Source: Candidatus Omnitrophota bacterium | GTDB lineage: Bacteria > Omnitrophota > Gorgyraeia > Zapsychrales > JAKLDJ01 | Direction: 5' to 3' | Assembly (NCBI GenBank): GCA_022703585.1 | Contig: JAKLDJ010000001.1 | Location: 246,891 to 310,890 of the forward strand | DNA: 64,000 nucleotides | Shown here: positions 1 through 27,400 of the stretch, in pieces | Numbering within the stretch: position 1 is the stretch's first letter | Layout: every line of letters starts with the position of its first letter | Program-made: the position numbers and the translations under genes | The notes under the pieces: generated by a model | Databases searched by the model: none | Told to the model about the DNA's origin: nothing | Seen by the model: only the letters and a program-made list of their open reading frames with translations

Positions 1-420
1 AAACCGGCAAGTTCTATGCTATGCCGGTTGGTGATTTCATAAAGTCCCGGCCAGGTCCCGATATTCGAAATAACCGCCGTTTTGCCCTTAAATTCTTTAA
101 TGCGCCGGGCTAAATGTTCAGGAGAAGAAAGATCTTCCTGATGCAAATAATAATCTTTTCCCGGAATGAGGCCGTTAAGCCTGAAATTCTCCTGCGCATG
201 AGACAACAATCTAAAGTCATTATCAATCAGATCAAACCTTGCCGCGCCTAACCGCCATGCCGCCAGCGCCAGGATTCCTTCTGCGCAGCCGGCATCAATA
301 ACGCGTTTACCGGCTAAATCACAATGGAGTATCGCCGCGATAGCGGAAGTCGTATAGACGTGATGGCGGTTTAAGGCAAATATGCATAAGTCGAGATCCT
401 GGATAAGAATAACGTTTCGG
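1..420 (-). CDS. SAM-dependent methyltransferase small domain (RsmC/PrmA-like). It is in the -1 frame relative to the giant ORF, has no in-frame start codon, is partial (runs off the window start), and is probably the C-terminal continuation of the giant ORF through a frame disruption.
   Basis: Translation: RNVILIQDLDLCIFALNRHHVYTTSAIAAILHCDLAGKRVIDAGCAEGILALAAWRLGAARFDLIDNDFRLL...IKEFKGKTAVISNIGTWPG. Motif I is VIDAGCAEG. The frame has an in-frame TGA at 469-471 upstream and no ATG/GTG/TTG start between that TGA and the domain. The giant frame ends TAA 372-374 inside this domain. Confidence 0.55.
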
Positions 421-3400
421 GCAAGTTCTCTTTGAAGTGAAGCGCTCAGCTGTTTGTATTTTTCGGAATCAATGAAAAACAGGCAACCCACTCTTATAAA
501 ATAGTAGCCCTGGTTTCTTTGATAGGGCCTGCCCCAGCCATCGTGCTCTATTCTATGCAATTTTTCCGGCAATAAACCACCCCAACGTTCCCGGACAATA
601 CGACGAGGCCCAAATTGCAACAGGCTGTCAACGGCATCGAGATTATACATCTTCTCGTAACGAACATGTTCAAGGCCCAATTCATCAACAATCTTTTGGC
701 TTAAATTCCGGCAGGTTGATTCTTCAAGATGAACGGCTATTGGAGATTTATTGTCAAATGGAGTTGGGGCATACGCGGATTTCTGCTGAAGAAATTGCCC
801 GGCAGAACAACTTAATGGCCGCTGTGCCGGAGGGCCTCTGCTAACCCAATCAGAAAATGCATTTTCTATTCTAACAAAAACCTTTAATTGCCACGCCAAG
901 GTTAATATCGCCATCCAGGCAAAAATGACTATAAGCGGCAGATACGCGTTTAAATCGTCTTTCTTGTCGCCGAGCTTAGGTTTAAGCGACTCCCTGGTCT
1001 GAGGCTGCGAGGTGGCGGACGGTTTTTCCCAATTCGGAAACAGAGGCCGAATCCGGGTAATCCTTTTTTCCTCCAATGATAAGAAATAGAGCCCAAACAT
1101 TACCTCCACGCTACCCATTAGCCTGGAATCGGCGGACTGGACAACCGCCCTCAAAAACAAGTTCTTGATAGAAGTACCTGTTTGATCAACGATCGTTAAT
1201 GGACTGCCCTCGCTATTAATAAAATCTTCCATCAAGGCTTTTAGAATCTTGCGCAGCTGACGGTTAGGATTAAACCTAAGATCTTGAAGATATCTTTTCT
1301 GGAGGGCTAATTTTTCTTCATGTGTCCATTCTCTGATGTATGGCATAATCACGGAATCTATTTGGTCCGGAGGTGTAAATAAAAGCACAATAAAGTCCGT
1401 CACAACTTCGTGAATTAGAAGTCGACTACTGGCTAAATATCCGGCCCTTAGATAGACAAAACCCGCACCCAGGGCATGAACTGTTTCATGCAATAAAGCT
1501 CCATGCGGATCAAAAGAATGGACATCGACGACAACGACCCCTTTTACGTCTAAAGGAATTCCCAAGAATTCTAATAGTTGTTGCAGTGATATACCAAGGG
1601 CTCGGGCGCTATCCTCAAAATCACCCCTCGATATCCAACGACCATCCCAATCCATTCTCTCGGTAAGATAATCTTTGTCTGCTGGAGTGAACGCTTCTGC
1701 GGAAATAACTTTTCTCAAATAAGAATGCTCCTTGCTTCTGGAGCCGCTTTCATCAGATGCTAATAAGAACGCAAACAACGGATCCCCGAATTTAACATTC
1801 AGGAAATAGGGAATACCTTCCCGCGATAAAAGCGCAGTAATATCTCTTACCGGCGGTAAACCTTTTGTTTCGGGGAAATCGGAGAAATCTTCCCTGTCCA
1901 CGCCTTTCGTCATCCCTGATAAGGCAAACGGCAGCATCATCAGCGGCCATGAAGCAAAGGGCAGCGCGAAGCAGCCGAGGGCATCATCCTTTTCTCCCGA
2001 AGGTATAAAATTAGGTTTCGTTACATTTCGGTCTAAAACTTCTCTTCGAAATTGTTGAATAACAGGCAACTCATTGATCCAGGCAGACGCGTCGGCTAAA
2101 TTATCAAGAACTTCATTCACTTCGCCGACATATCCGTCGGGGATTTGGCTGTAGATTTGCGGCGGCTCTTGACTATCATCTAAGTAAAAATAATCAACGC
2201 CCGGAACAAGAAAATTTTCATCGACGTTAACATCGATGGTGCGAACACCATAACTCATTATTTCCGTAGTTATAGCCTGGGGAGGGATGATCCAAACTTT
2301 GCCGGGAGCAGCGACAAACATATATTGGACTTTGCGATTTTGCGATACAACACGATACCTTCTTACTTTCCTTCCGTATAATTCGGTTAATCCGCTCCTG
2401 TCTGTGCTTATTTCAACGATGCCTCTGCTAAAATCCGGTTCAAAACCATACACAAATTTTCCGGATGCAGGATCATTTTTCCTTGTAAAATAAGCGATTC
2501 TCCGGCCATGGTTAATAAGATTACGCCCGGATGCTCTCGCTTTTTGTCTTGGAGCAACAAAATCTCGATAAGGACCGATGCGATGATAGGGTGCCCTGCG
2601 CACAACCAAGCTAACAGCGGCAGCATCATGCCTGGGTCTTTTAACCTTTAAGTTAATCGCATCAAGGGCCGACTGAATTTCAAGAGGCAAATTCGTTGTC
2701 TCTTCCATCGAGACATACAGCACTTCCCCATTTTCATGAATAATCTTAAGATCTCCTTTGCCAAACCATTCATTATTTCCGTTTGAGCCGTGATGATGGG
2801 AGGCTGATCGCCACGCAAGAGAATAATCTTTGTAAAATAAACGCGGGTAAATAACCTGTTTACCGGTGGCAGGATGCCTCTCTAGAACATAGGCGACAAA
2901 CATTATTTCATCATCATCGAGCAGGGTATTGGTCAGATAATACGTCGTAGTGAAAAGCTGTATTTTATATTTTGGTGTATAGCCCCGCGATAATAAGCTT
3001 AAAGGATCATTTTTAGCTTTTCCAACGGGTTTTATCTCTACGCCGTTTTCAATAAGTTTTCTAAATTCGTATTCCACTTGTCGGGGGGTCATGTTTGAAG
3101 GACGAACCTTGCGTACAATCCGCGCGGCGGGTTGAGCCCTCTTTTTTCCATCAGTCGAATTATCTTTTACCATCCCCCCCACCGACAGGAAAACCGGCAA
3201 CAACATCAGCGGCCCGGCCTCGACGAGGCTCAAAAGGCCTGCGAAGGCCGAGGCGGGCAACAAAACCAAAGACCAAAGACCAAAGACCGCGCTCAAATCC
3301 GCCAGCGACCAGAAGGTAAAGAACAAGATAACGCAACTCATCTCGTCTTGTTGGGTATGCTCAAAGCTGCCGTGTGCCAATTTTATTTTAGCGGCACGCA

Positions 3401-6400
3401 CTTTAAACAGCGTTTGGTCTAAAATCCCGTTGTCCGTGAATGAAAAACAGGGAGTGGCCGTATCGCTATCAACAAAAAGCCTCTTGGCCCTTCCGCCTAA
3501 ACCTAGCTCGACGACCGCATCGGCCCTTAGGGCATCCGATAACCTTACCATTTCGCTTGAATACGCTGGCCTGTTAATTGTATCCAGAATACCTTCAATA
3601 ACATCATGGCTCGTCCTTAGATACCCTGTGTTGTTATTGGATACGATAGGCACCCATGGATCCCGGACTTCAATATTTCGACCGATAAAATCCTTCACGG
3701 CCAGACGTAGGTGGGTCCATTTCCTGGAATGAGAAGAAAATCTATTGTTCCTCAATAATAGCTTGGCCTTGATCCCCATCTCGCCAGAATGGGTAACCAT
3801 AAACTCTTCAAAATCGCCTAAGGTGGCATCGTCGACAAAAACCTTGCATCGGGGTACCGACCCAGCAGAATAAAATTTAAACACCTCAACGGCATCGGAA
3901 AATCTGCGCTCTAAAATACGTACCGCTTCATGGGTTCTCTCGCCATCCAGAACAAAGATATGATTCAGTCCGCGCGCAGCAGGGCTCTTTGCCCCTTCGG
4001 TAAAGATATAGCGTTCCAATCTTACCCCGTCTCCGATAGAAATCGCGCCACTGGCAATGGCCGAAGTTACTGACCCGAGGCTTTCTCCGGCAAATGCCTT
4101 GAATGCAAACGGAATTCCTTCTTTCTTGACAACTGCTTCAAAATAAGCTTTTAACGCCAAATTGATCACCGTAAGAGCTACGCTTAAAAAGCTCGGCCTT
4201 CTGGAATGGTCCGAAGGGATATTCCTGCTATTAATGAATAGTTTGGCCGGGTCAGGTCGGCCCTTATCATCTTTAAACCCTAAGGCCTCGGCAGCCGCTT
4301 TATAGAGAGATTGTATTTCGAGTATTCCCGTGTCATACAAAACACTGCCTACTCTTCCATAGGCGCCCACGCTACGAAAGCTCTGGAAGAGTCCTATTAA
4401 CTGAAGCTGAATATTACTACCTCTGTCTTCCCCGCCTACTATCCCCGCCAACGGCACCAAGGCCAAAGGCCAAAGACTAAAGACCAAACTAAGACCAGCC
4501 AGCGGCACAAACGCACCGAGACGGCCTGCGTCCGAGGCCTCACTCGGATTTGGCGCACGGTAGAGAATCATGCCCTCGCTACGGATTTGCTCAGGGGACG
4601 TATGCGTTAACCCACGATCATCGCTAAAAGCCACATGCGGCTTAACACCGACCGATTCCTCGCGGGCAAAATAAAGAATCTCATTTTTTAACCGCCAGGC
4701 ATCCATATCCGTGCCGGGCGCATCGATAAAGATATCCGCATCGGCGTCAACGGGTGTCGGCGCGCGGGACAAGCTGCCGAAAAGATACAGGTTGAATTTC
4801 CGCACCTTAACCCGGTCAACGGCTCGCCCGACCAGCCAACGGGCATCGGCAATCCTTGCGTCACGTTCCGAGTCCGTAAGTAACGGGCGCGCTTTCTTGC
4901 CGCCCTCCTTATCTTGCATCATTCTTAACGGTTTGTCTCCCTCAATGCGACGCCTGAGCCCTTGTTCAGCTGCCTCACTGCCAAAGAAATAATACGTGCC
5001 TTCAAGGTCGAGCCCGCCCTGCCCTACAGGCTTTTCCGTCAGGTAAGAAAACGGGGTGATCCTGCCGATATCGGAAGAATAGAAATCAATATACATAGCC
5101 GTTGGTTTTTCGCCGGCACGCTCAAGATAAACAAATCCGTTTTTAATAGTTGCAGTTACGCCTGCTTCATTAAGAAACGCCGCGGCCTTTATCATGGCGA
5201 CGTCAAAAATATCCTGCGCCTGTTCCGGGGTCAAGGTATCGTCGAGGTAAACCCTAAAATCAACATCCTTCCTATTCCAAAACGCCCGGCCGTGGGCTTT
5301 AAAAGATTTCGGGAAACTGCCCTCGGCCTTAACCAATACACTTTTACCACCGGAGGCTTCATAAAACGCCCGCGTTACAATATCAACCACATTGGCACCC
5401 TGCCAGGTGCGCGCCACATCAACATGAAAGATGTTTTCCTTAAGCGTGTACGCCGTCTTTTCTATCCCTAAAAGCTTAATAATTTTTAACGGATCAAAAG
5501 CGGCCAACGGCAGAAAAGCGCCCAAGGATTCATCAAGCACAGTTTTCGCCGCAGCAAATACTTCCTCGGGGGTTAAGCGGTACGGATTCCCTTCCGGAGA
5601 TTTAAGAATGATGCTTCGGTCGGTCCAAGGACGGCATTCTGTCTGATTGGTAGAACCGAAAAGCGAAATAATCTTAGGGGCATTGACCGCCGCAGCCACA
5701 TGCGTCAAGCCGCAATCATTGCCGATGACAATATTCGTACGTTCAAGCACCGCCGCCACAACATGGATAGGCTGATTCGAAACCACCGCAACCTTTTCCG
5801 GATTTTTAACCGCTGATAAGAGTTTTTTATCGAGTCCGTCTTGTTGTTCTTCCGGGCCCAGAAATACGGCAAACTTCATTTGCGGAAATTCATCATGCAT
5901 GAGATTAACCAGCTGGGCAAAATGTTCGACGGGCCAGCGCCGGAGCATAAACCATCTGCCGCAGCCTAAATTCAGGCCAATCAAGGCTTCAGACTCGGTG
6001 ATGCCGTTTTGGGATAAAAATTCCCGGGCTGTTGCCTTTGCCGCGTCCGGAATGGTCAGCTTAACCGACATGTCAAATCCATGGCCGGGATTTACGCTTA
6101 ACGCCCCAAGGCTGGTAAGGCGAAATAGGTCCATATTCGTCTCGGCATGATGGCGATGGGAACTAAATCCTACAGCGTTTTCATGATTTAAAAACGACAG
6201 CCTCGCCTTTGAATCCAGCCCAATGCGGTACCGGGCCAAAAGCGCCCCCAGGATACTATCCATGTAACGCCACCGCGAGGTGACAATGCCCAAATCCGCC
6301 TTTTTAAAGATAAAAGGCATCAGCCTCGACACTTCCCGAAGGCTCTCTTGCAACCTATGCATACGGGGTGAAAATCGGATGACCTCATCAATATACGGTT

Positions 6401-9400
6401 CGTGAGTAAGAATTCCGTTTGAAGAGCCGTTGGCAATAACGGTAATCCGCGCCCGAGGCAATCTTTTCCTTAATTCCTTTAGCATCGGAATAAACAGAAC
6501 CGTGTCGCCCATGCCGTCGTGTAAAAAGACAATAACGGTTCGAGCCGAAGAAAAATCCGCCCGCTGCCGGCCCAGGTATATTCTCGTCAGAAACTTAACC
6601 GGATACAGCCCCAAAAGGACTCCTTCTCTTATAAATTTCTTTGCTGTTCTAAGCAAAATTTTTGAGAGTATTTTCACGGCAAGGACAAAGGCGTATCGCG
6701 CCGACCATTGCTGCTCTTCTTTAACAAGCTTCTCGATGCGCCATTCAATAGGAGAAAGATTTCCGTCCGGCATGCGGTATCCGGGCCCCATTAACAAAGT
6801 CAGGATGCTAAAATATCCGGGCAGGCGGCGGGAGTTAATCTTTTCTCGATAGGCTTCAGTTTCTTCATCCGCCGTAATCGGCCTGGGGCCAAAAAACGAC
6901 ATCTCTCCTTTTATAATATTAAAGATTTGCGGCAATTCATCCAGGCCGGTTAAACGTAAAAACTTTCCTATCAGCCCGCTGCGGTTATCTCTCATGGTGC
7001 GTATTTTATAAACCCTAAACATCGTTCCCTGATATCCGACACGTTCCTGGATAAAGAATCCCGGCTTTTTGAAATCGGAAAGCTTAACGGTGGCCCACAA
7101 AATTCCAATCATCGGCAGAATCACGGGCATCGCAATCCACGGAACCACCCTATCAATCAACTTGATATACCAAAGATTATGAATGAGTTTCCCGGCGTCT
7201 CCGCCTTGCGGATTTTTCTGACGATCTTCTGCTATCATCCCCGTCAGGGACAGAAGAACCAATCCCGGCACCAGGCAGCCGAGCCTATCGGATACGGCGG
7301 AATCACCGCGGCCTTCGCCTTCAGTTTCAGTAATCGGTATTAGGCGCAGCCTTCGTTCCAATAACTGCTCAAGCCGGGCTTGTTGTTTTTCGCGCGAATC
7401 GCTGCGGTCATCGCCAAAGCCGCCCCGCACCCGGACAGTAAGATATTCCCACCCGTTCTCAAAATAAAACGGCGTGTAACCATTACGTATTAAGAAATAA
7501 TTGGCCATAAACCAGGCAAGCCGGTGATGGCCGTCGGCGGTATGGGGAGCAAGCGCCCCGCGTTGCTGCCGGCCGCCGGGAGTAACCGTGTCAAATCCGG
7601 CTAACCCGGGAAAAAGCCTGGGGATATAAGTAAAATTGAAATTTAGAAACGCCTGTCCAAACCCGACGGCCTTATAGATACGCGCTGCCACGCGGATAAC
7701 GATTGCGCGATCGGCATACCGCCGATTCGCCCAGTCAACATACGGCATCCCCGCCACCGACTGCAACCGTTGTCCCCGTATCTCAGCGGTATAGGCAGGA
7801 TTTTCTCTGTCGCCTCTGAATAATTCATACATGTCCATGGCATACTCCCATGTCAGCGGCACCCCGGAGGCAATGAGCCGGTTAAAATAATCGATAGCGG
7901 ATTCAAGCCGCGGCATAATATTAGAAGAAGCCAATGCCGCCGCTCGTTCGGGCTCGAGCCGGGCTTGAGCAATCATTCTCGTTGCCGACCCGGCCTCGAT
8001 GAGGCCAAAAAGCCCTAATAAGGCCGAGGCGGGCAGGAAGGCGGCGATCGTATCGTCGTGGCTTGGTTCTTCATCCACAGCTTGCGGCATTACAGATAAC
8101 ACGCTGCCCGAATCAATATCTTGGGTAAACGAGATATACGCATCGAGTGCGGCGCTATAGGCTTCCGCAACAAAACGTTTTTCATCCAAAGACGGATGAT
8201 TCTCTTCTCCGATCGAAAATAGCCGGCTGCGCATGGATTGCGCAACGGCGCTTTTGCCCTGCAGGAATTCTAACAGTGTCAAGGCAGCAGATATTCTCTT
8301 TGCGGCTTTTCTGAAATGCTCATCCTCTGTTTTCTTTTTAATAAAAGTATTGTTCATCCGTTGATGAGATATAATCAACAACCTCGAAATTTCGGCTATA
8401 TTGTTTTGGAATTGGTTTGGCGTACTAACAAATTCTTTACCCCACACAACAAGCTGAGCCTTATTGGTTCGCGTGCGGTGAGAGTTAACAACCCATACCG
8501 GATGGTCTATAATCACACCTTGGGGCACCTCCGGAGTCACATCGCTTTCCAACACTTCCCGGCCTGTTATGATCATACCCATTTTTTGTATTTGCTTTTC
8601 CAGGGTTATATCTTCGGGCAAGGCTAAAACCAGGTGATCTATATCCAAAGCGGTTAAAATTCTCCCCTCAACAACAACCAGAATGTCTAAATCACGAGGG
8701 TGCGCACTATACAGATAGCTTCCGAAAAACGATATATTGACAACTTCGTACCCTAAGGATTGACGAATATATGAGAGTAGGCACGGAACAATCTGCAAGA
8801 GTGATCGAGCCGTTGCAAATACTTTTTCCTGGTGGGGCTTCTTGAGAATTTTAAAAATTCGCATATAATTAAGCTGCTCTAAGAGCAGTTCGTCTGTTGA
8901 TACATCAACATCACGATCGGATAACACCCTCAACGGAAATTCAAATACATAGTCCCGCATCTCGGGAACAGCAAGCTCGGCAATTTTCAATTTATCTGCA
9001 TTAGTCAATTGATTGATTGTGTTACCTTCTGAATAGCTGCGCGGATGATGAAAATCTTCGCTCTCTCCCGCTTGTCGCGGCCCGGCAGCGGACAACTCAC
9101 TCCTTCTTCCATCGCCCTTTTCGTCTCTCGTCATCCCCATGAGTACCATCGGCAGCGCCAGCAGAAAAGCAAACGGCACAAAGGAGCAGGCAAGCTCGCC
9201 GTTGATGTAGGAAGCCACGTCCCGGCCAATCGGCAGGTTAGCACGCACGCGCACCAAATTCCGGAGGTATTCATACGGTACCGGTGCGCTGAAATTATTC
9301 CTAGACCCGATAATACAATCAATGCGCAGGGCTTTCTTATCATACGTTGCTTCGGCTGGGATAATCAGGCCCCTTGGTTCCCGATGGGCAAAAAGCCTGA

Positions 9401-12400
9401 TAAGCCAGGAGAGAGCCGTAGTGTAGTGGCCGTTCGCCCGCGCAAGCACGTCCAGCAATGTTGACGGCCGGCGCAAGACATAACTGCCGTTATGGCTTTG
9501 ATGTTCTAAAATCCATCCCTTAATATTTGCTCCGTCGACAAATACATCGTTGAGGATAACGGCCAGGTGGCTGCCGACGGCACTGCGGGCATCATTCGCC
9601 CAGTTCTTAACACCGAGCACAATCAATCCTCTGATGTCCCGATGGTCCTGGCGCACAACGCGCATCACGCTGCCCCGCGGGTACGCCTGCGAAGAATCGA
9701 TAACGAGCCCCTGATGATTAACAACCACAACATCTGTTAGTCCGGCGTGTAGCGCGCGCAGGAAACGCCGTTCCACTTTTTCACACGCAGGAGACACAAT
9801 CTTGAATAACCCTATATCAACAAGCCACATCTTTTCTGCTTCTGAAAACCGTATGCCATAGATACCTGATTTTCTATATAACGGGATTGGCTGCAGTTGC
9901 ACCGCACCCTGGGCTTTCCCGACGCCATCTCGCACCATCCCCATCATCAGCCCCGTAAAAAAGAACCCGGATCCGAGGAGGCCAAGGGCCGAAACGGACG
10001 TGAACATAAAAGGATTGATAATGCAGCTGACAGATTCGTCGGAGGCAAACGGAACATTTGGCTCAGACAGCCTTTGGACGCCTTTTGAACTATTCAGCTT
10101 GCGAATATGCCTCTTGATTAACAAGACTCTAAGAAAGGTCGGAGAATGAAATAGGTAAGCCCAAAATCCTCTGGATCCTTTGATTATTTTCAGGAATTCG
10201 TACGGATGAGATATATCAAACCCTGCCTCATGCGCAAATTTAATTCCCAAAAAGTCAGCCCTCAACTCAAAATACCATCTGCGTACAACCGAAATAGAAA
10301 CGATGGCGCATCCGATCAAGATCTTATTGACGGAATATTCGTCAAAAAACGTGTTTTCAACAACCGATAAAATCATCAGCTTCATCAGGAAACCGGCAAA
10401 TTCCACGTTCCCCTTTGTGGAAAGCTCGTTTCTCGACTGTCTATCAAGTTTTACTATATGGGCAAAGACCGCGTAAGCCACTCCTTTTGGATCTCGGCTT
10501 TCTAAAGAAACAACATGATGCTTCTCGGTCGTATGGGCAAGTTCGTGCCCCAGGATAAGAGCCCTTGTTGATTGGTGAAGGGTAAAAAATTTATTGTTGA
10601 TAATGATACCCGGCTGACGGAGGAATAATGCCGCGGCATTAACCTTTTTCTGGGAAAATCCTGAAATATTCAACAGGGTGTATTTAAAGCAGTTTAAGCC
10701 CGGATAATGATTGGATGCGGCCCTGATCAGCTCTCCCAACATGTACTTTGTTTCTTGTATTTTGTTCCTCTGCACAGGCACGTAAACAGCTTTGGTGGCG
10801 AATAGATTTCGTGCCCAATATAACCTAATAGCCGCGGAAATAAGACTGATAGCAATCATGGCTTTGGTCAAGTCTCCAAGCCCGGCTGTACTCAACGAGG
10901 TTTTAAAGATGCCAACAACATAGATGAAGAATCCGGCAATCGCCACCGCTCTTATATTGGATATTACGGAAGGCATCACTTTGTTGTGATGAGCCATCCT
11001 GCTGTAAATGATCTTGAATGTTTTCAGGGCCGCCGCTGCCAAGATGACATTTCTCAAGAAGACATCATTCCAAATCAAACCAATCCACGTTCCTCCTGTC
11101 AAAAGCCCGGCCCCTTCGACTGCGCTCAGGGCGAGCCCGATGAGGCCAAAAAGCCCTAATAAGGCCGAGGCGGGCAGGAAGGCGGCGACCGAATCACCGT
11201 CATCACCGGCCGTTGGCGGTAATCGATCTTTACCGGACTTGCCCCCCTGGATAAGGTGCCGTTTGCGCAACTCTGTTAAGGTTTCGCTTCGAGAGCGTTT
11301 AATGAGATAGGTACGAGCAAAAGCCACAACTCCGAGCGTAGCCAAGAAACTCACGAGATATTCAATGACCTGCCGTAATGAACCAGGCGGCTCAACAACG
11401 GCAAGCACCAGGAGGCCGAGGGCAGCCGCAAGAATAACCACGTCACGTTCTGCCCTGATAAGACGCCCTATTTTCACCAGAGACTTGCCCAGGTCAAAAG
11501 TGGCCCATCCCAGGCCGGTAAAAAGAAAGATGAAGATTATTAAATCCGTAAAATCAAGGACTATGCCGCCGCTCCTCATCCAATCGCGCACTCCGCCGAC
11601 AAAGGTAAAATCTAACATACGCGCGAATAAAATACCGCACCCGAGCCCCATCCATAGATGCCATAAACGCTTTTTCACATTGATTAAGTTAGCGAGAAGA
11701 TAGGCAGCCCAAAAGTCTGCCAAAATCGTGCCCAGCTCAAGCATCTGCGCCTTGTCCCCATAGTGAACAAGATTCTCTAACGAGATATTGCCGGTCAGAA
11801 TATCGTAAAAGCGGCCTATGGCTGTTTTTAAATTTGAAACAAGCGAGAAATCCTGCGCACTGGTCATGTCTCCGGGTATCGAATGAAATGTTTTTTCGGG
11901 AATAGTCAGCCAGACATAAATTTTAAAGGTCCAGTCGATCAGGGAAATGGCAATCATGGGAATCATCAGGTGCGGCTTGGGATGCAGGCGGGACAACAAA
12001 CGCTGCGGCGGCCCGTCCGCCAGAAAATCTGTCGAGACAGGTCTCGCCCCGACAGTATGTCGGGGCGGACCGCGACGGGTCATCGCCGCATGGGCCATGC
12101 GATTCTTCGAAACCACTGCCGCCCAGGAAATCCCGACAAGACAAACAATCGTCAGCATAAAAGGCCACAGGATAACGGCCGCAAGCTCAGATTCGTCGAC
12201 GGCCGCGGACCCGGGAGGCGCGAAATACTCCGAGAGATGCACGGCGACCGCGTCATGGAAATTGCGCTGCGCGTTCACGGCACGGGCCCATTTTCTAAAA
12301 CGCTCTGTGTAGTCATCGTATGCCAGAAACATGTCGCGTGCTTCGGGGACAGCGTGAGAAAAAGGCAATCCTTGATGTCCCGTTTCTATACAACTGGAAT

Positions 12401-15400
12401 GTAACTCCAAACGAAAGTGTCGATAATATTCGTAGGAAGGCTCAAAGAAAAACGGCTTTGCAGCGCTGAGCTCAGTCGACACCGTCCCGTAACCGGTAAC
12501 CAAAGACGGCAAGTTGCAGGCGGCAACCAACGCGCTAAAGTCACGAAACGGGATACGATTTAAATTAACCAGTAAAACCCGTCCCATCGGCGTATTCATC
12601 GGCACAATGTAGGGCTTATGTTTGACAAAGCGAAACACAACAATAGGCCTGTCGGCAAGCGGCAACTTCTTAGAATGCGCGGTATTCAAAGCATCGCGTA
12701 CTAAATCAAGGTAGGCAAATACTACGCTCTCATCGTGGGCATGTGGCATCACTAAGCCCCAGCGCGCTTCCCGGATAATATCAACCGCCCCCAAATATTC
12801 ATCGCTCAGCTGCCCCGCAAACATTTCCAGCAATGCCAGCCGTAAGTAAGCGCTGCCGTCGATGGCAATATTATCCATCAAATCTTCGTCAAGAATGGCT
12901 CCGTGTGAACCGCTGGTAACGCCCGGATATAACATGCGAACATTGTCAATCGGTACTGAGTCTGCGTATACAGATAATGACGGCTTTGATATTGCAAAAC
13001 CGTATTCGGGAAACACGATACTCATGGGGGCAACAATACCCTGGCCTGCCAGTTCACGGTAGAGCCTGGCTGTCATTCTATTCCCCGACGCATAGTAAAC
13101 CGTCGGATAGGTGATAACATAATCGCCGATATTTGCAAGGTCAGCGTAGGCTATATACATAATGCCATTCACTTCATTTTCCGGTACCGCCCAATCGATG
13201 TTAGGGAAAAAGCCCGAGAGCAATTGGTAAGAATATTGCTGGATAAATACACGAACTGTCGCGTCAGGGAAACGACGTTTAATGCCGCGCGCCACCATAA
13301 TCGACAGCCCGATATCACCCACGCCATCCGGCAAGACTTCGGGAATAACGTTGACGGCATGATCAAACATCATCCGCTCCAGCCATGCCGGCCAGGCAAG
13401 CGTCTGGGGCGCTTCCAGAACAGAAGCCGACTGCGTCATGCCTGCCAACGGCAGGCAGACTAAAGACCAGAGACTAAAGACAAAATTAAAATCGGCAAAC
13501 GGCAGGAAGGCAGCGAGTGGGGTTCCGTTATCCAACGACTGACCGAAAGGACCAAGCAGTCGTTGTGGAGTGACCGGCGCCTCAGCAAGCTCAACGTATT
13601 CGATGTCCTCATTAAGCCATTTCAAGATCACCTGTGTCATATGTGTATTAATAATAAGATATCCTTTGCGTTTAAGCATCATCAGGCTCTCGCGGTCTTC
13701 GACAGTCACGAATACAGGGGTAAGGATATCGTACATTAGTTGCAAGGATGCAGCCCAGAGTACCCGCTGCAGGACGATTTGTTCCCGCGTCGAGAGCTTG
13801 CCTTCTGCCCAATCGTTAAAAATAGTCTCGCGCAAAGTTTCCTGCGGCGTCACTTCAGCGGCACTCGTGTTATCCAACTCCGAGAGTGAAACGTCAGCGG
13901 GGTTAAACCGTAATACCTCCCCTGCCATTAACCGGCGATACAGCTCCCGAGTGGTATTGTGAATGACGTTCACATCATAAATACTCGACGTACCCATAAC
14001 GCCCTTTCCCCCGTCAATGACCGCCTCATATCCCATGCCGCGCAACACCTCGTCGAGGGCGATACGAGTTAACCAATCGAGCTGTCCGGAATCCAGTTTC
14101 TTGACAAGACCACTGGCGATCTTCGCGGCTTCCATATCATGGCGCTGGCCAATCTTGCCTAAGGCAATAACCAGCGGAATAGTTGCCGGTGAATCAACCG
14201 GCGAGGAACCCAGTGCTTCAAGCAAGGCGCCAATCGCCCTGCGCCCAACCTTGACCAAGGTTTGAATTACGACACGCTGTGAATAATCGGAGACAACGCC
14301 GGTAAGGCTCACCAGACGTGCCAATGCCGACCGTTCTTTGCTAAGGCCAAGCTGACGGATGGCCTTATTACGTATGGAGGGAACAACGTCCGTCAATTGC
14401 TCTTCCAATGTTTCGACCGGGATAACGGCGGTTTCAACATCCATCGTTCGGCGATTATGCACTTTGATAATTTCGATAACCCTGACAAATTCGGGAATAT
14501 CCTCAAAACCGATTGTCTCAATCTTGATAATGTCAACGCGAACACCCAGGCGCTGCGTGATGTGCTCCATCACCTCGAAGGTACCGATCCCCTCGTAGAT
14601 AATCACGTCAATTGTACGATCATAATACGCCTCAAGGATATGTTCACGGGCTTCCGCGTCATGACGTTCAACATCCATATAATCGTAGTTCATGACAAAG
14701 ACGCGGTCAGCCGGAATGCCTAGACCACCACACTGCAATTCTTTCGCGAGATGCGTCTTGCCTGAGGTGCTAGCACCGCCAATAACTAGAATAACCTTGG
14801 TAGGACTGTCAGTAATAATCTGGCGGACCAAACGAATCCCTTCGCGCTGCGTGATGATCTGCTGAACTTCTTGAGTCGAGATTATCGCTTCCTCCGTTTC
14901 CTCGGAAACCCAATTATCCGAAATACAGGTTGAGGATAGCACCAAATGTTTAATGCCCTGATTCTGTTCGTCCATAACAACGTAGCAATCGATAAATTCC
15001 GCTCCCATGGCATCCGCCACTCGACCCCAAAGATTGGCACGCACCGCTTCACTCGAGACCTTGTTGACGGGTTTCAAGGGATCCTTCTGAAGTAAAATTT
15101 CAATAATATCCGCCCGCAGGCGCTCAGCAATCTCGTCACGCACCGCAAAATATTCTCCGTTACCAATAACAAAATTCCTGAGTTGCTCATCATCGAAGAT
15201 ATCGACTATCGCAGCTTTTTTGTCATTGAAGCCCGGAACCATCATGGTAGCAAAATGTTCATATGCCAATAAGTCCTGGCGCAGCCTGCCGATAACATTC
15301 ACCCCTTTTTGGATAAAAAGATCTCCTTGTTCAAATTGCGCCTCGAGTGCTCTGGCAATATAATAAAGGCTTTCGATTTCCGTCATACGAATCTGAACCT

Positions 15401-18400
15401 TAAAAGCCCTCACGGCGTTTGATTTGAACCGTTCGCCTAATAATCGCGCGAACGCGCTAAAGACGCCACGGCCCGAAATCAACAGCAACTGACTATCTAA
15501 AAGATGAATCTTTCCGCGAGGCCCTATGTGCCCGTAGATATAGACGCCTCTGATGCGTCGGCCAGTTGCCTGATCCGCAAAGAAGATTGCCCAGAATAAT
15601 TTCCCTTTATATTCCTGGCGCAACGCCTGCGTGCGGACACTCACCAACTCATCAAACCGGCCGATATCGGTCAAAAGTTCCGCGCACCCGCCTTGTATAA
15701 TCTCAAAATCAAAAACCAGTTCCCGCGCCAAATGAGCAACATCGGTAGAGAATGAAACCACATAACACCTGCCGGCTTTATCTTTGACCTGTTCACCATC
15801 TAGAGAACGCAAGATCCCAAAGGCCTCTTTTTGCTGAGCCGTAAAAAGTAATTCATGCTGCAGCGCTTCAATCCATGAAATCACTTGACGGTAATGGCGG
15901 ACTTGCTGCGCTGACAAAAAGGCATTCTCGCCTAATGGGCCGCCCATGGCCGCCCCCTTGACGTCAATCGCTACGCCACAGACATCGAGCTCTTGATGCC
16001 GCTCAAGCCGGTGTTGGCACTCTTCGAGCACAACCTGCAATTGTTCCTGCAATTCCCTTTCCATCATATCGGGCTCGACCATGCACGTCTTAAGGGTACG
16101 GGCAATGAACTCCAGCTTTCCGAAAGAATACGTATTAGTCAAGAACCAGATTTCTAGTAAATGCGCGATAAGCGACTCCCGTTTCTTCTGAGTGGCATCA
16201 TAGAGCTCAGCCGGTCTTCCTATATAATCGCGCAACAATGCCTTAACCCGTCCGGTTTCGTGGCGTCCGGCATAACGGTCGATATCTGCACGTAATTCCG
16301 CACCCAACTCTCTGGCAAGGTTAAGGCCTTTCATGTAACCAGCCAACATCTCTCTGTTCACGGCAATTTCAAAGGGCATATCTTCACCGGGAATACTGAC
16401 AAGTAGAGCCGGCATTATCGCTAAGATTTTCTCAACGACTGCCACAAACTCTTGTTGTGTTAACGCGCCGTCGTCTAAAAATGCGGATACCGCCGCCTGC
16501 TCGGCAAGGTCAGGCGTTAACATCATGGCGACAATCTCGGAGACATCTTCACCGCTGGTATATAATTCCCGGATTGCCCGGGCACCACTAACGCCATAGT
16601 AGTTTTCTATGAACTCGACCGTTTCCTTGTCTATATTTCTAAAGCGGTACATCCTGCCATCCGCGCTATATGCCTGCTGTGGCATTAATAATTCTTTCAA
16701 CGCACTCTCCAACATACCCAACATCACCGCACGTTCATTATTGGTATCATCCATCCGTCCCAATAACGGCATCAGCGCGAACAGGGAGAGAAACGGAACA
16801 AAGGCGGTGAGGGTGTCCACCTTTTGACCGTCCGGTGTCCGGCGGTAAAAAGGAAGCTCAACGACAAATCGGTATTTATACAAGCCTTCTTCCTGGCTGA
16901 CAAATTCCGTCGATACGCGTAATGGTTTCGGGTGCCAGGCAAGAGGAGTAAAGGTTAAGTTTTTTCCGGCAGCCGAGGCAAGGATTCCTCGCAACCCCGC
17001 CCAATCCTCGTCGGTCACATCGTGTTTAAAGAGAGCGAACCGGATGCGTTTGATTCCGTATTCCAGCATTTTGTTGGAGTCTAGAACCAGTTCTTCCATG
17101 TTCTGCGGTCCCAAGAATTCAAATTTCAAAAGCGCTACCGGGCCCTTGGCGCCGCCGCTAATCGTCAACAAATGTTTCTCGGTATCAAACTGGTCTCTGA
17201 ACATGCTTTCAAAGGCAGTTTTAATAGATACCCCTTGAGGAATAAACGGGCTCACCATAATTGTGCGGCTGGGGAAAATGATTGTCCGCGGGGTTAAGCA
17301 AAAGTCGAGCGTGATAATCCGTCTGTTGCTATCATGAGAAACGATTCCTGTTTCTTGTGTAACAGCCCGATCACTGCGGCGGCCTTCACCGAGTCCGGCA
17401 GGAACTTCAGAAGAACTGCCGGGTTGCGACTTCTCGGCTTTGATAATATCGCCTTGATCCTCGACGCCCAGGCTATTCTCTTCGGGCTGCGCAGACGCTA
17501 CCTCGCGATCGAGATCATCGCCAGCGTGTCCGCACATGGCCTCGATTTCCTCGCGGATACCTTCAACTACATCCTCCATTGCCCCTATTTGAAGCGCCGC
17601 CTTCTTAAACTTCCGGGACACCTTAAACCGGAGATAGAGATCCAAGCCCGCCAGAAACAGACTAATACCGAAGCCGGCCAGGGCAATAAATAACGGGCTC
17701 AAGGCGGCAAGCTCGTCGTCCGACGTATCACTATCGGGGACAGACCCCGCCTCATCTTGGATGTGTCCCCTTTCTACGCCTGGGACTGTCCCAGGTGTGG
17801 CTTGGGGACAGGTCGGAGTTACGGCGGGCCGTCCATCAAAAGATCCATCGGGACGAGCCTCGCCACGAAATTCGGCGGGGTCTGTCCCCGTTTCCACTTC
17901 CATGGCGGACCCGGCAGGAAGAGTTATGTTCTTAATCCCGGCATAATCAAATCCCGTGGCCTCAACAGCGGCCTTCCAAGAACCAAAGTACTTGGCGCCC
18001 GCGGTATACACAGAATTTAGGGAAATATTTATTTTAAAATGATCGTAAAGAATTCTTCTCGCTTGCGGCGGATTACACCTCATTGCAGTAAAAGATAAAT
18101 CAATCCTGCCATAGAGCAGTGTAATCGCTTCAATAATCCTTTCTCTATTCCAGAATCTATCCGGCACCTGCTGCCTTCGCGGCGACTGCACCTTTTTTAA
18201 CGGCCGCAATTTCCCGTTATGGCTCACCGTCAATGTCCCGTTGGATTCCCGCAGAATCCACTTACGCAACCGCTCAATGGCTTTTGCATGAATTTGGCAC
18301 GCGCGAGATTCAGTTACCCCCAAGCTCTCGCCGATTGTCTTTAGCGTCATCCCTTCCAGATAATACCGGCGCACAACATATTGCTCTTTTTTCGGCAACC

Positions 18401-21400
18401 GCGGCAGGTGCTTGGCAACCACATGTGTCAAAAACGCCCTGTTTTCATATTGGATATCAAATCTATACGGCGCAGCGACATCCATCGCTTCCAAAATATC
18501 CCTCTCGCCCTCTCCATCCTCGCCTAGAGATAATTCTTCCAGCGATACCCGATAGGTCGCGCCGGAGAGTATATCTCTAACAATTTCTCTGGACAATCCG
18601 GCGCGCTCGGCAATTTGGGCAATATCAGGATACCGAACACCTTCGGCGGCAAGAGCCGTCTGGGCATTCAGCATCCGGGAGACACAAGACCGGCTTGTAC
18701 GGCTTTCCCACATCTCAAGGCGTGCCTGGTCAATCATGCGGGGCCTTAGTATGCCTATTATCCAGGTCTTGAGACTCGCCCCTCTTGAACTATCAAATTT
18801 TTGAATAGCTTCTAAAACCGCCGCCTGGCCAGCGCTAATGAGTACTTCGAAATCTACTGTGGAATACTGTTCCCGAACAGAAAATGCTGTTTTTCTTATT
18901 ATAGGTAGCCACTCCTCAAGAACTGCACTGTTTTGATCAAATGTTTGTGCGCGCAAGCCGCGACGAAGCCTGGAGCCTTCCGTCCTTTTTACCTTGGGTT
19001 GGCGCGGTTGGCGAAGCTCATACTTACTTCTGCCGATTTTCGGATAGCCTGCCGCGACTAAATCAGCATTCATCTTTTTGCTGTAATAGTGCACGGCACT
19101 TTTATCTATTTTGAGTTCCACCATAATCATTTTGCGAGTCAACGGATTTCTGGGCCAGTCATTGGGGTCGGAAATCCCGTCAAAATGTTGTTTTGCCAAA
19201 GCCAGCAACTGCGGATGAAGCATGTCATATCGGGAACTCCCGGGCTGGCGCGGTTGGCGAGGCTGACCAGGTTCACGCCTGCTTCTGCTAAAGAGAGGAT
19301 AGCCGGCATTAACCAGGTCTTGACCCATCTTGCCCTTATAATATTTATAAATCCATGCCGGAATACTTAAGGCAATCATAATGCTCGCCGGAGTCAACGG
19401 ATTCTTAGGCCAGTCATTGGGGTCGAGAATCGCGTCAAAGTGTTGTTTTGCCAAGGCCAGCAACTGCGGACGAAGCGTGCCATAGCGGGAAGTCCCGGGC
19501 TGACGAGGCCGATAGGGCCCACGCTTGCCTCTGCCGATTTTCGGATAGCCTGCCGCGGCTAAAGCACTATTCATCTTTTTACTGTAGTATTGCACAGAAT
19601 TTCTATTTAATTTGAGCTCCGCCATAATGATTTTCTGAGTCAACGGATTCTTAGGCCAGTCATTGGGATCGGGAATCGCGCCAAAGTGTCGTTTTGCCAA
19701 GGCCATTAATTGAGAACAAAGCGCATCGTATTTTCTTACCCGTGGCTGTCTGGGTTTCGCAAGTTTAACCGGATTCCTTCCAATTTCGGGATAACCTGCC
19801 GATAGTAAATCAATGTTCATCTTTCTTTTATAGTTTCTTATAAAGAATTCATTTACGCTTAAGGAAGACATAATCACTTTCCTGGTCAAGGGGTGATTGG
19901 GCCACTCTGCAGGCAAATGTGAATCAAAATGTTTTCTGGCCAATTCCAAAAGCCGGGGACGAAAGGCATCGTAGACGAGTACCCTGGGCTGGCGCGGTTG
20001 TTGAGGCTGGCGAGACTGGCCGGGCTCACGCCTGCTTGTGCTGATTTTAGGATAGCCTTCTTTCTCTAAAAAGGCCTGTATTTCAGGACGGTGTCCTAAA
20101 TAAATCGATTTGCTGACATTCGGCCAGGACAAAATCATTTTCTTGATTAGAGGATGATTCTCCCGCTCCTGAGGATCAAATTGGTCAAAGTGCTGCCGGA
20201 TACGGTTCTGGATGTCAGGAAAAACAATCATAAAATTTGGCCCTCGAGACCGACCGGTTTTGGGACGGATTTTTCTTGCCGCTGGTTGCTTAGGCTCAGC
20301 GGATCGGTTGCCTCTTTTCCGGGCAATCTCCGGATAATGCTGTTCCGCTAAATAGGCCTGTATCTCCGCTCGATGCCGGACATAAATGCCTGCTCTCATT
20401 TCGGGCCAGGATAAAATCATCATCTTGGTCAGAGGATGATTTTCCCGTTCTTCGGGCGTAAATTGCGCAAAGTATTCGTCAATGCGGCGCTTGATATCAG
20501 GGAAAATAGTACCAAAATGAGGACTGTAGGGACGGCCGGTTTTGGGACGGCTTTTGGACACAACAGAGACTTTTTCTCTCCTGGGCTGAGGTTGTTTTCT
20601 GGGCTGACCGGACTCACGCCTGCTTCTGCCGATTTTCGGATAGCCTGCGTTTTTCAAATCGACGTTCATCCTTTTCTTATAGTTTCGTATGAAAGATTTA
20701 TTTACTCCCAGGGAAGACATAATAATCTTTCCGGTCAAGGGGTGATTAAGCCGCTCTTTTTTATCAGGGATTGCCGCAAAGTGTTTTTGGGCCAACGCCA
20801 GAAGCCGGAGACGGAAGGCATCATAAACGGATATCCTGGACTGGTGTGACCGACGAGTCTGACGCGATTGGCGAAGCTGGGGAAGCTTGCGGTTACTTCT
20901 GCCGACGATGGGGTAACCGGCTGCTATCAAATCAGCGTTCATCTTTCTTTTGTAGTTTCTAATAAAAGATTCGTTTACTCCCAGCAAAGACATGATAATT
21001 TCCTTGGTCAAGGGGTGATTGCGCCATTCCTTTTTATTAGGGATCGCCGCAAAGTATTTCTTAGATAATGCCAGAAGCCGGGGACGGAAGGCATCATAGA
21101 CCAACACTCTGGACTGGCCGGGCCTTGGCTCAGCAACTCCCTTTGACTCAGCGTCTTTCAGGCGGCCCGTCAGAAAGATAGCGGACAGGCAAGATAAGAA
21201 AATAAATGGCGTGAACGGCACGATAAACGCGGCCAGGCTTTCGCTCAGCTGTATCAAGCTTTCTTCGGGCCCGGTCAATGACGATAAAATTTTCTGCCGC
21301 CGCGCGTAAAAATAATTTACGACCCGGCGCTGAACCATCAATGCGGCGACCGGATCAACAATAGAATCATTCAGCCAGAGCGGCTCATCAATATCGCCGA

Positions 21401-24400: not shown

Positions 24401-27400
24401 CGCCGCGCTCGAGTCTTTCGAAGACAACGCTGTAGCGTCCGTGATATGGGGCGCGGGTAAACAGCCGCGTATACCCAAATCGGGTGATGAAAAATTCTAA
24501 CCCCTCAAACAAGCTTAGCGGCTGACTTTGATATCTCCTGCCCAATGCCGTTAAGACGGTTCTAAAGGACTCACGGTCTACTAGCCACCCGGCCGGCGCA
24601 TCAAAACGCCCGAAGGAGAGCCGAACGTCTCTGGCATACCGCCACTGCATCCGGGCTGCCTCGACGGTCTCGGGCTTGCCTTGAATCTGTTCTCGCCAAT
24701 CCATCGCCCCTAATAATGGCGCCAGCGCAAATAGGGTTACAAACGGAACAAACGCAGCCACAGTATCCTCGCCATGAAAACCAGCGCGGCTATCGCTGAT
24801 GGGCAGGCGAATGATAACACGCACCGTATTCGCGAATTCTCTAATTTCGAGTGTTCCGTCGTGAACCTCTACTATTAAACGGCTTAACGGAATTCCAACG
24901 CCTCTCCCATGAGAACCCGTAACAAACCAATCAAAAAGATGCCCCCGCATAAAAGGCGCAATGCGTCCTTTGTTTTCTATTCTTACGGAAACAAAGCGTC
25001 CTTTCCTGCCGGAAATTATTCTGTGCTTAACAGCCACGTCTTCTTTGGAGGCACGCCATGCATTATAGATTATTTCATTAAATACCTTTGAGGGGCCAAG
25101 CCACACTTGCTGTAATCCATCAACACGGGCAGGCCCTTGAAAGGATGTTCGTTCCTTCAGAAATGAGTTAAGGCAAGAAGATAGCACCTCCTGAACATCA
25201 ACGGGATTAACCACTCTTTTTTCAAAACCAAGCAGCCAGCCTATTTGACTGGCGAGTATTGCTAATTCGGCGCTCAATTGTATCCTCTGCGTTGTCAGCT
25301 CTTGAAACTTTCTATCGGTTATCAATGCAAACAGGTCCTTGTTCTCGTCAGAATCAAATCCTTCCGCAACTACTGAACCCCAGCATCCAAACAAACCTTG
25401 GGCGCCTATTCGTATAACTGCCAGATAGTGGCTCATGGATTCTCTGTCTTCCAAAGACGGCCGGGGCCTGTCTAACCGGCCTTCCAGCATCCCGGCATAG
25501 CTATTAAAAAGCGGTGACGAGAAATCGTGGTAAAGCCAGGTATCGGCGATAACCGGCCACAATTTTCTCCAGACATGGACAACTACCTCATCTAAGAGAA
25601 ACTCGGCAAGCGGCCTGTCCATTCTTCCGGCATGTGATTGTGAAATGTCCTGAACGCGCTTAAAGAAAGTAACCGTTAAGCGTTTATCAGCGGAGAGCGA
25701 TCTGAGCATCCCCAGGGCGGTTGATTCCTTTTCGTTTACCATCCCCAAAAGCGGCACAAACATCATTGGTCCCAGGGCAAACGGCACCAGGCAGCCGAGA
25801 TCATCATCCAGCGACGGCTTTTGGGCCACAAAGCCGCTTAAATAGCTGACAAAACCCTCCGTACCGGGAATCGAAACCGCCTGGTCGGCAATAACAGAGA
25901 ATCCGGCATCCAAAAACTCTCCCCTGTAGACTTCAGGGGCTGCATGTACCGTTACCGACAGGATTTTAATTTCTCCTTCCGCAATTTGCCGAATGAGTTC
26001 TTGGGCCGTATAACGGGTTGCGTCAATGCCCTCTCCTTTTACGCCGCGCAATACCATCATCGGATACATTTGATGATCTTCCAGGATTGCCTCAAAATCT
26101 TTAGATACGATAATACCTGTTTCAACCAGCTGCCGGAGAACCTGCCTGTGGAGGGCATAGCTTTTGGTATACCACCGGCCGCGATTCTCCGTCGGCATAA
26201 CACGCCGATAGTCCAGGAATGATACAAGTCCGCCCGGCTTTACGATACGGAATATCTCGCTTAAGATCCGGCGGCGTTTAGAAAGCAAGGGAATCATATT
26301 CAAGGCGCGATGGAACACCGCCGCGTCCAATACGCCTTCCGGCAAATAGGCCTCTTCGGCTAAATCCGCCTGCTGATAAGAAAGGGCCGGCTGAGGTGAA
26401 TTCTTGAGATGCATCAAAGCCACAATCGCGGCCGTCGCCTCCTGATAATTAAGGGATTGTGCTAACGCATTTGAACGGGAGGCGGCCACATACCGGTGTT
26501 CTCTCTCCAGACCAAGAACATTAAATCCTTGCCCATACAACCATTCACTGATTTGACCCGCACCCGAACCGACATCGGCAACAACCATCCTGTCATTTTG
26601 ATTCAGTTCCTGCCGCGCCTGACTTTGAAGTATCCGCGCCAAAACCACGGGATACGTATGCATATAACTGACGTCTTCTCTTCCGCTAAAGTAACCCCAA
26701 TTTGTCAAAATCCGCTGTTGGTTGACGCCCGCTACTAACCTGGCAGCATGCCTTGTTTTCATCAGGCGCGGGTCTCGTATTATTCTTGATTGTGAAATAC
26801 CTTCAAGCCTAGGCATAACATTGACATCGTCTTGTTCATCCTCTACGGCAGCCAGGGAAGTTAAGACCAAAGACCAGAGACCAAAGACTAGGTTTAAATC
26901 GGCGACGAGCATAAACGCGCCGAGTGCTTCAGCTGCCTCCGGAGATGCGGATAAGAGCTTTTCACCATCTGCCCAGTGTGCATTGCGGAGCATTTCTTCC
27001 AAAACAGCCTGCGTTGCTTTGGCTGCCGCCGGGTTTTTGCTGACCCGCATAAACTGCGACTCTTTTCCCGAAAAGGCCCTGAGTATGTCCATAAGAGTCT
27101 GCGAATTGACATCTACCCCTATTCCCAGTGGTGTTTCCCCGGGCTCCCGTTCGAACCCACCAAAAACCAATGCGGCAACGCGCGGTTCTGAGCCCGACTC
27201 AACGATTACCAGAGGCGAACCCGAATCACCGGGAATAGTCTCAACCCGATCGGAGCAAATGCTCCCAGAATCCCTGTGAAGATATCCCGCTGATACCCTG
27301 TTTTCCCCGGTCAATACCCTATTTCTACCGCTTACGAGAATTGCCAATGTGTTATTTCTCCAGGAAAAATCAAAAGGCATAGGCTGAAGGCTGCCAGCCA

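Follow-up and report, generated by a model that had tools for sequence, protein, structure and literature searches.

Does a HExxH string lying among the hydrophobic segments of a giant bacterial open reading frame (ORF) mark a genuine metalloprotease, and what would such an enzyme do there? The question is raised by a stretch of 64,000 nucleotides from a Candidatus Omnitrophota bacterium (contig JAKLDJ010000001.1, positions 246,891 to 310,890), which is referred to here as the window and whose coordinates are counted from its first letter. A first-pass annotation had placed an M48-like metalloprotease of the HtpX/Ste24 type at positions 10250-10700 of the window. Our analysis indicates that the minus-strand segment 10029-10976 is probably a complete, highly divergent HtpX-type M48 protease that is built in frame into a giant (>21,332 amino acids, aa) multi-enzyme membrane protein of the Omnitrophota kind.

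The coding capacity of the window was evaluated by a six-frame stop count. The minus-strand frame with offset 2 contained 0 stops in 21,332 codons over the whole 64 kb, and the remaining five frames contained 648-1,401 stops each. Since the frame is open at both window ends, the gene must be longer than 64 kb. The GC contents at codon positions 1, 2, and 3 were 0.564, 0.397, and 0.526, respectively. A stop-free frame and a codon-position GC as expected for coding sequence argue that the giant ORF is a real coding sequence. The amino-acid composition of its translation was ordinary. No ORF above 203 aa was found on the plus strand of the window, and Rfam and tRNA scans of the 64 kb detected no RNA genes. 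Residues are numbered along the window translation, the codon of residue i beginning at plus-strand position 63998-3(i-1). A Kyte-Doolittle scan returned 52 hydrophobic segments along the giant ORF, approximately one per 400 aa, and several of them lie on either side of aa 17818. The ORF and the elements of the putative protease module are as follows.

1-64000 (codon 1 at 63998), minus strand: giant ORF (stop-free frame, codon-position GC)
10029-10976, minus strand: predicted complete HtpX-like M48 module, aa ~17675-17990 (MAFFT alignment with E. coli HtpX, BepA, LoiP, and YcaL; hydropathy)
10191-10658, minus strand: match to Pfam Peptidase_M48 (PF01435), aa 17781-17936, profile positions 30-165 of 186
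10905-10955, minus strand: transmembrane (TM) segment TM1, aa 17682-17698, aligned with HtpX TM1 (hydropathy, alignment)
10812-10871, minus strand: TM2, aa 17710-17729, aligned with HtpX TM2 (hydropathy, alignment)
10629-10640, minus strand: N-A-A-A (NAxA motif), aa 17787-17790, upstream of the active-site helix (paralog alignment)
10518-10547, minus strand: HELAHTTEKH, aa 17818-27, with H17818 and H17822 as predicted zinc ligands, E17819 as the catalytic residue, and, at +9, the His typical of M48 (alignment, mutation control)
10272-10406, minus strand: hydrophobic segments H3 (aa 17865-17881) and H4 (aa 17889-17909), lying after HExxH and before the third zinc ligand (hydropathy, alignment)
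10254-10268, minus strand: E-L-R-A-D, aa 17911-17915, with the predicted third zinc ligand E17911 (ExxAD; alignment, mutation control)
10128-10148, minus strand: H-S-P-T-F-L-R, aa 17951-17957, corresponding to the active-site plug H-P-x4-R of M48 (alignment)

The minus-strand translation of window 10200-10760 contains TRALILGHELAHTTEKHHVVSL. The HExxH string lies within LILGHELAHTTEKHH (10559-10515, minus strand), in which HELAH represents aa 17818-17822 (10547-10533). The PF01435 score was 36.1 bits (E 7.6e-9) for a 500-aa piece, 38.2 bits (E 1.8e-9) for a 221-aa piece, and 30.7 bits (E 3.5e-7) for a 5,000-aa chunk, all of which exceed the curated gathering cut-off of 20.3 bits, and the match spanned 136 of the 186 profile positions. 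When HELAH was mutated to AALAA, the score fell to 14.0 bits (E 0.044), a loss of 24 bits; when ELRAD was additionally changed to ALRAA, the match was gone. Reversed and shuffled module sequences gave no PF01435 match. Therefore, the match depends on HExxH and ExxAD at the right spacing, not on composition. A peptidase-family signal beyond the short HExxH string is thus present, since it survives the first mutation and is lost only with the second.

The module was further aligned with the four M48 paralogs of E. coli K-12, and all 12 columns invariant among the paralogs were kept (N17787, A17788, A17790, H17818, E17819, H17822, E17911, A17914, D17915, E17934, H17951, and R17957). H17818-E-L-A-H17822 was aligned with H139/E140/H143 of HtpX, and E17911-L-R-A-D17915 with E222/A225/D226. 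The third zinc ligand in M48 is the Glu of an E-x-x-A-D motif 60-90 residues downstream of HExxH; in the module this motif follows after 88 residues. The plug residues H17951 and R17957 were in register, with the 6-residue spacing and 128 residues after HExxH. The zinc ligands of BepA are H136/H140/E201 together with H246 of the active-site plug (Bryant et al., bioRxiv 10.1101/2020.07.30.230011), and the same positions are kept in the module. A composite signature, NAxA-x(20,40)-HExxH-x(60,110)-ExxAD-x(20,60)-H-x5-R, which was defined post hoc from the paralog alignment with generous spacing windows, occurred once in the ORF compared with 2.8e-6 expected.

The loop that carries HExxH (aa 17730-17864, 135 aa) contains 19 K+R and 8 D+E, and ExxAD comes directly after H4. 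The hydropathy and charge layout of the module is the HtpX arrangement, i.e., a TM hairpin, a K/R-rich loop, two hydrophobic segments, and ExxAD. Further hydrophobic stretches flank the module at aa 17477-17566, 17604-17620, and 17992-18018. The first-pass annotation was right that long hydrophobic stretches lie on both sides of the HExxH motif. Its interval covers the Pfam core and misses the N-terminal TM pair (10812-10955) and the plug (10128-10148).

E. coli HtpX (MEROPS M48B), an inner-membrane heat-shock zinc endopeptidase, has the same order of elements as the module: two N-terminal TM helices, a segment of ~85 aa with NAxA, HExxH, two hydrophobic segments, ExxAD, and a C-terminal plug His...Arg. 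The size of the module is also about that of a free-standing HtpX. Nevertheless, HtpX is a free-standing protein of ~290 aa, whereas the module is an internal part of an ORF of >21,332 aa. Compared with HtpX, the module has ~10 extra residues between HExxH and ExxAD, and its plug begins with H-S-P, not H-P-P. BepA, LoiP, and YcaL, which are soluble or lipoprotein M48 proteases, have NAxA, the zinc ligands, and the plug His and Arg in common with the module; however, they reside in the periplasm or the outer membrane and lack TM helices, BepA having a TPR domain, whereas the module has four hydrophobic segments and no TPR domain. The module is HtpX-like in architecture and is not an HtpX ortholog.

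HtpX has an N-terminal membrane-spanning part and a protease domain directed toward the cytoplasm, and degrades misfolded membrane proteins (PMC9263693). The catalytic domain of the module is predicted to face the cytoplasm as well, and the excess of K+R over D+E in its loop fits the positive-inside rule. An even number (4) of hydrophobic elements separates the M48 domain from the downstream Bac_transf and GT9 modules. Since the latter two need cytoplasmic nucleotide-sugar or lipid substrates, this count is consistent with a cytoplasmic M48 domain. Across the whole ORF, the parity of the hydrophobic-segment counts between modules was ambiguous.

Ste24/ZMPSTE24 and BlaR1/MecR1 are membrane-embedded gluzincins with HExxH and a downstream Glu, and provide precedents for processing, translocon clearing, and self-cleavage. 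A Ste24/CAAX (M48A) assignment was rejected, as no match to Peptidase_M48_N (five-helix) was found in the 5,000-aa chunk, which includes the TM cluster upstream of the module; the HtpX half of the HtpX/Ste24 designation was retained and the Ste24 half was not.

Several observations weigh against the assignment to HtpX-type M48. Little similarity remains beyond the catalytic motifs, given the 14 bits left without HExxH and none once ExxAD is removed too. The H-P-x4-R plug is conserved through PF01435, with the pattern HExxH-x(30,140)-H-P-x4-R (Bryant et al., bioRxiv 10.1101/2020.07.30.230011); this strict form is unmatched in the module, which reads H-S-P-x3-R with the Pro shifted by one position. 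A profile built from the four E. coli paralogs picked the right region but was not significant (hhalign E 0.0034, probability 9.6%; hmmsearch -0.3 bits), and pairwise BLASTP against HtpX was likewise insignificant. None of the NCBIfam HtpX models matched the module, and the BepA model remained below its threshold (17.1 bits vs 570, E 0.0018, around HExxH). Single-sequence AlphaFold2 modelling of the module gave an unusable result (pLDDT 36.3, pTM 0.20), and the topology is based on hydropathy and the positive-inside rule only. Moreover, searches of 5.8 billion clusters and of the PDB sequences yielded no homolog of the module, an exhaustive phmmer search of 1.84 billion representatives returned nothing at E<=0.001, and back-translated module peptides were unmatched in GTDB genomes and JGI metagenomes. 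The homolog search likewise found no relative of the 2,011-aa region around the module, and the giant ORF holds no internal paralog of it. Weighing both sides, we consider it likely that the module is a genuine, highly divergent HtpX-type M48 protease with an intact predicted active site.

The GC content of the M48 module was low (0.433), and its GC3 was normal (0.486, z -1.1). A recent foreign origin of the module is thus unsupported, the low GC reflecting amino-acid composition.

The module is embedded in a chain on which about 20 different enzyme-like modules are tiled. The Pfam assignments over the whole ORF, all on the minus strand, are as follows.

aa 1426-1510: methyltransferase (DREV / MT_25)
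aa 1685-1887: CheR, first
aa 2014-2173: OGFr_N
aa 2431-2554: Maf
aa 2889-2981: ARMT1-like
aa 3487-3688: Dus (121 bits)
several places: further S-adenosylmethionine (SAM) methyltransferases
aa 6176-6293: NUDIX
aa 11285-11425 (29724-30146): sigma-70-like module, r2/r3
aa 12129-12264 (27207-27614): Trypsin_2 (S1) protease module (E 6.5e-9)
aa 12971-13067: HATPase_c
aa 13225-13419: CheR, second
aa 15028-15246 (18261-18917): sigma-70-like module, r2+r4 (r4 E 4.9e-15)
aa ~16529-16602: HEAT
aa 17781-17936: Peptidase_M48
aa 18947-19068: Bac_transf
aa 19253-19470: GT9
aa 21212-21286: PrmA

The Trypsin_2 module, in which the His (ATATHVV), the Asp (DDIAFL), and GDSGSP can all be recognized, is the other apparently intact protease of the giant ORF. 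The two sigma-70-like modules are located inside a membrane-studded ORF, and a sigma factor function would need their release or a cytoplasmic chain.

Giant proteins of this general appearance have been described in Omnitrophota. The "Archaeovorins" are defined there by glycosyltransferases, methyltransferases, peptidases, and NUDIX hydrolases, along with numerous TM regions (West-Roberts et al. 2023). A giant class named "multi-enzyme metabolic cluster" has about 1 TM helix per few hundred residues and consists of ~80% sequence singletons (Nielsen & Lui 2026). Omnitrophota giant ORFs are poorly conserved (Seymour et al. 2023), and the domains on giant proteins have been reported to be highly divergent. 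Like the published giants, the present ORF is one frame of tens of kb that encodes many TM segments and a succession of enzyme Pfams, and both have methyltransferases, NUDIX, glycosyltransferases, peptidases, HATPase_c, and HEAT. The ORF also resembles most of the giants in lacking close relatives. SecA_DEAD, C39, and S8, which are highlighted for the published giants, were absent from the 64-kb fragment of a gene that runs past both of its ends. The ORF therefore matches the Omnitrophota Archaeovorin/multi-enzyme giant kind by architecture only, no sequence relatives having been found.

What would an M48 protease do in such a protein? Most likely, the module would carry out membrane-proximal proteolysis, in either the quality control or the self-processing of the giant protein. 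In the proposed mechanism, the TM1-TM2 hairpin would keep both flanks cytoplasmic and hold the zinc site at the membrane surface, as in HtpX, and the module would be a zinc endopeptidase that attacks segments which are misfolded or close to the membrane. Since it is covalently tethered to a chain that has over 50 hydrophobic segments, it would be best placed to act on that chain; the most probable substrates would be the giant polypeptide itself and its neighbours. It could serve in quality control or "declogging" while the chain is being inserted, and possibly also cut the chain between modules. We give roughly equal weight to the quality control of failed insertions and to cleavage between modules. 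The latter agrees with the post-translational cleavage of giant proteins that West-Roberts et al. proposed while lacking information on the cleavage points. It also agrees with the lack of internal Shine-Dalgarno (SD)-like sequences: SD-like motifs preceded 1% of the in-frame ATGs vs 2.9% of all codons in the giant ORF. The absence of SD enrichment at internal ATGs gives no support for a separate translation of the modules.

Cleavage between modules brings a recurring element of the ORF into consideration. In an iterated hidden Markov model (HMM) search, a conserved hydrophobic element of ~40 aa, termed "punctuation" here and exemplified by GEDTVAAFVPFVTLFALAPLLGAMDWRE, was detected at least 24 times, and many of the hydrophobic segments of the ORF are copies of it. 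Its consensus begins with an acidic run, continues with L-[GA]-[AC]-F-[VL]-P-F-x2-L-x5-(P)-L-L-G-[MA], and ends with charged residues. A strict regular expression for the core gave 17 matches vs 0.7-0.9 in global or local shuffles. The copies are located between Pfam domains, often at domain ends (OGFr_N|2179, 18941|Bac_transf, GT9|19472, and others), and those at aa 11264 and 19492 are too short to cross the membrane. The copies near the M48 module and further examples, all on the minus strand, are as follows.

11106-11231: copy directly N-terminal of the M48 module, aa 17590-17631 (HMM); holds the repeat arm 11138-11200
9924-10046: weak punctuation-like hydrophobic element adjoining the C-terminal end of the M48 module, aa ~17985-18025, SDESVSCIINPF...GMVRD (hydropathy)
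7941-8117: copy, aa 18628-18686 (HMM); holds the repeat arm 7997-8059
24642-24827: copy, aa 13058-13119
16695-16877: copy, aa 15708-15768
33396-33581: copy, aa 10140-10201
1851-2048: copy, aa 20651-20716

The two repeat arms form a 63-nt direct repeat (copies at aa 17602 and 18649) with 94% identity, the first 51 nt being identical. They are 3,141 nt apart, in frame, and bracket the M48-containing segment; among the DNA repeats in which the motif takes part, this one is the strongest. It suggests recent gene conversion or recombination between punctuation copies.

The element had no consistent match in Pfam or NCBIfam, in which only isolated single-copy matches to unrelated families were obtained (best E 0.0024), and its profile found no match beyond the giant ORF in the homolog search. 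A DNA pattern for D-[DE]-x-L-G-C-F-x-L-P-F gave 5 matches in genome contigs and 10 in metagenome contigs, roughly what chance would give (~4 estimated for the genome contigs). Four loci, two of them on one contig, lie in an open frame, in ORFs of 202-676 aa with no further motif copies; the rest are not in an open frame. For the published giants, the available portions of West-Roberts et al. (2023) and Nielsen & Lui (2026) mention neither this recurring inter-module motif nor an M48 module or sigma-70-like modules. The element may be a module boundary, an anchor, or a cleavage site.

A second DNA repeat family, with 62-78% identity, was observed at window 3244-3325, 4441-4522, 13438-13519, 26845-26926, and 38353-38455. 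It appears to encode a '...VFSLWSLV...' extended variant of the hydrophobic element. Some punctuation elements may be double-length, possibly hairpins.

We put forward as a hypothesis that the M48 module is a processing protease. In its strongest form, M48, along with the S1 module, would be dedicated to polyprotein processing and would cut at or next to the punctuation motif, releasing the enzymes and the two sigma-70-like modules. The presence of at least 24 conserved copies between modules and at Pfam domain ends is in keeping with this, as are two protease modules with intact active sites in one ORF; the copies too short for the membrane show a conservation that simple anchoring leaves unexplained. 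Without SD enrichment at internal ATGs, separate products would need proteolysis, and post-translational cleavage is what West-Roberts et al. proposed for giants. M48 enzymes also auto-proteolyse, e.g., BepA (Bryant et al., bioRxiv 10.1101/2020.07.30.230011). However, the motif may be just a membrane anchor or insertion signal, and HtpX-type enzymes are not known for sequence-specific processing. Furthermore, the motif was not found outside the giant ORF and fits no known sorting or cleavage signal model. We therefore regard a dedicated processing protease as unlikely, although it fares best among the alternatives. A broader version is somewhat more doubtful: the giant ORF would be a bacterial membrane-tethered polyprotein whose ~20 modules are cut at or beside the punctuation elements by the built-in M48 and S1 proteases, with products that include two sigma-70-like factors, and the 63-nt copies would also mark recombination points for module shuffling.

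If the module were an inactive relic, a captured HtpX gene would now serve only as a membrane anchor or spacer. The extreme divergence, with no phmmer match at the threshold given above, the shifted plug proline, and the reported divergence of giant-protein domains would all fit such a relic or structural domain. Nevertheless, all of the zinc-binding and catalytic residues were kept despite the divergence, which is unlikely without selection for activity, and we judge a relic to be improbable.

A signalling protease like BlaR1/MecR1 (M56) would be a regulatory switch, not a housekeeping enzyme: on a signal, it would autocleave and cut a regulator, by which the sigma-70-like modules, for instance, could be set free. 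The weak match to Pfam Peptidase_M56 that spans the TM region and HExxH (13.9 bits, E 0.03) and the presence of HATPase_c and the two sigma-70-like modules in the same ORF could be taken in its favour. However, the score is far under the cut-off of 31 and M48 matched much better, Pfam detected no sensor domain or BlaI-type repressor near the module, and the sigma modules are 2,500-6,500 aa away from it. An M56-like switch thus appears even less probable than a relic.

Finally, a chance HExxH in a hydrophobic protein, or an M50/site-2-protease (S2P)-type intramembrane protease, is highly improbable: although 0.55 HExxH strings are expected in the ORF from composition, so that a single bare HExxH is unremarkable by itself, PF01435 scored above its cut-off, the composite signature has the expectation of 2.8e-6 given above, M50 gave no match at E<=10 (its LDG motif was not looked for), and HExxH is located in a polar K/R-rich loop, not in a TM helix. 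Of the two profiles that the first-pass annotation had proposed to compare, Peptidase_M48 and M50, only the former was matched, and its suggestion of an intramembrane protease does not hold in the strict sense.

Besides HELAH, two further HExxH strings occur in the giant ORF, which makes three (aa 10901, 17818, and 20837). Both were found by string search on the minus strand; the first-pass annotation had listed HETVH and not HEFQH.

1476-1490, minus strand: HETVH, aa 20837-20841, inside ALLHETVHALGAG at 1499-1461
31284-31298, minus strand: HEFQH (LHEFQHN), aa 10901-10905

Neither region had a peptidase match in Pfam or NCBIfam. The surroundings of HEFQH gave only weak helix-turn-helix Pfam matches (E 0.01-0.05), and an AlphaFold model of the HETVH module (aa 20705-21000) was unusable (pLDDT 37.7). 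The two strings are probably chance occurrences. The further HExxH that had been noted at 1441-1500 is thus present, as HETVH at 1490-1476, but lacks Pfam or NCBIfam support as a protease.

Two other regions of the ORF were conspicuous. A tandem-like repeat block is located at window 19027-21118 on the minus strand (aa ~14293-14990), just N-terminal of the second sigma-70-like module; its units of ~243-273 nt (~81-91 aa) are 60-87% identical in DNA and have no Pfam assignment. At window ~400-3250 on the minus strand (aa ~20250-21200), a stretch that includes the HETVH module has a GC3 of ~0.38-0.45 vs the ORF mean of 0.527 (sd 0.038). This stretch may be a segment of distinct composition that was possibly acquired more recently.

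The module is a new, very divergent member of a known protease family within an already described kind of giant gene. Since the M48 domain belongs to a common, well-understood family and earlier work has reported giant proteins with peptidase domains, the novelty of the domain itself is modest. If the module served only HtpX-style quality control, inserting more than 50 hydrophobic segments would seem to need a dedicated, covalently attached protease. If the polyprotein reading were true, it would amount to a cellular counterpart of the polyprotein processing of viruses, and the 63-nt motif copies that bracket the M48 segment would be recombination points for module shuffling. Published work on giant genes (West-Roberts et al.) describes products of 20,000-150,000 aa, leaves open whether they act as one chain or as cut pieces, and gives no known cleavage points. 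The window offers testable candidates in this respect: an HtpX-like protease with an intact catalytic set at the predicted cytoplasmic membrane face, an S1 module, and an inter-module motif that gives predicted boundaries. The punctuation motif and the two protease modules together provide a concrete handle on whether giant bacterial proteins are processed.

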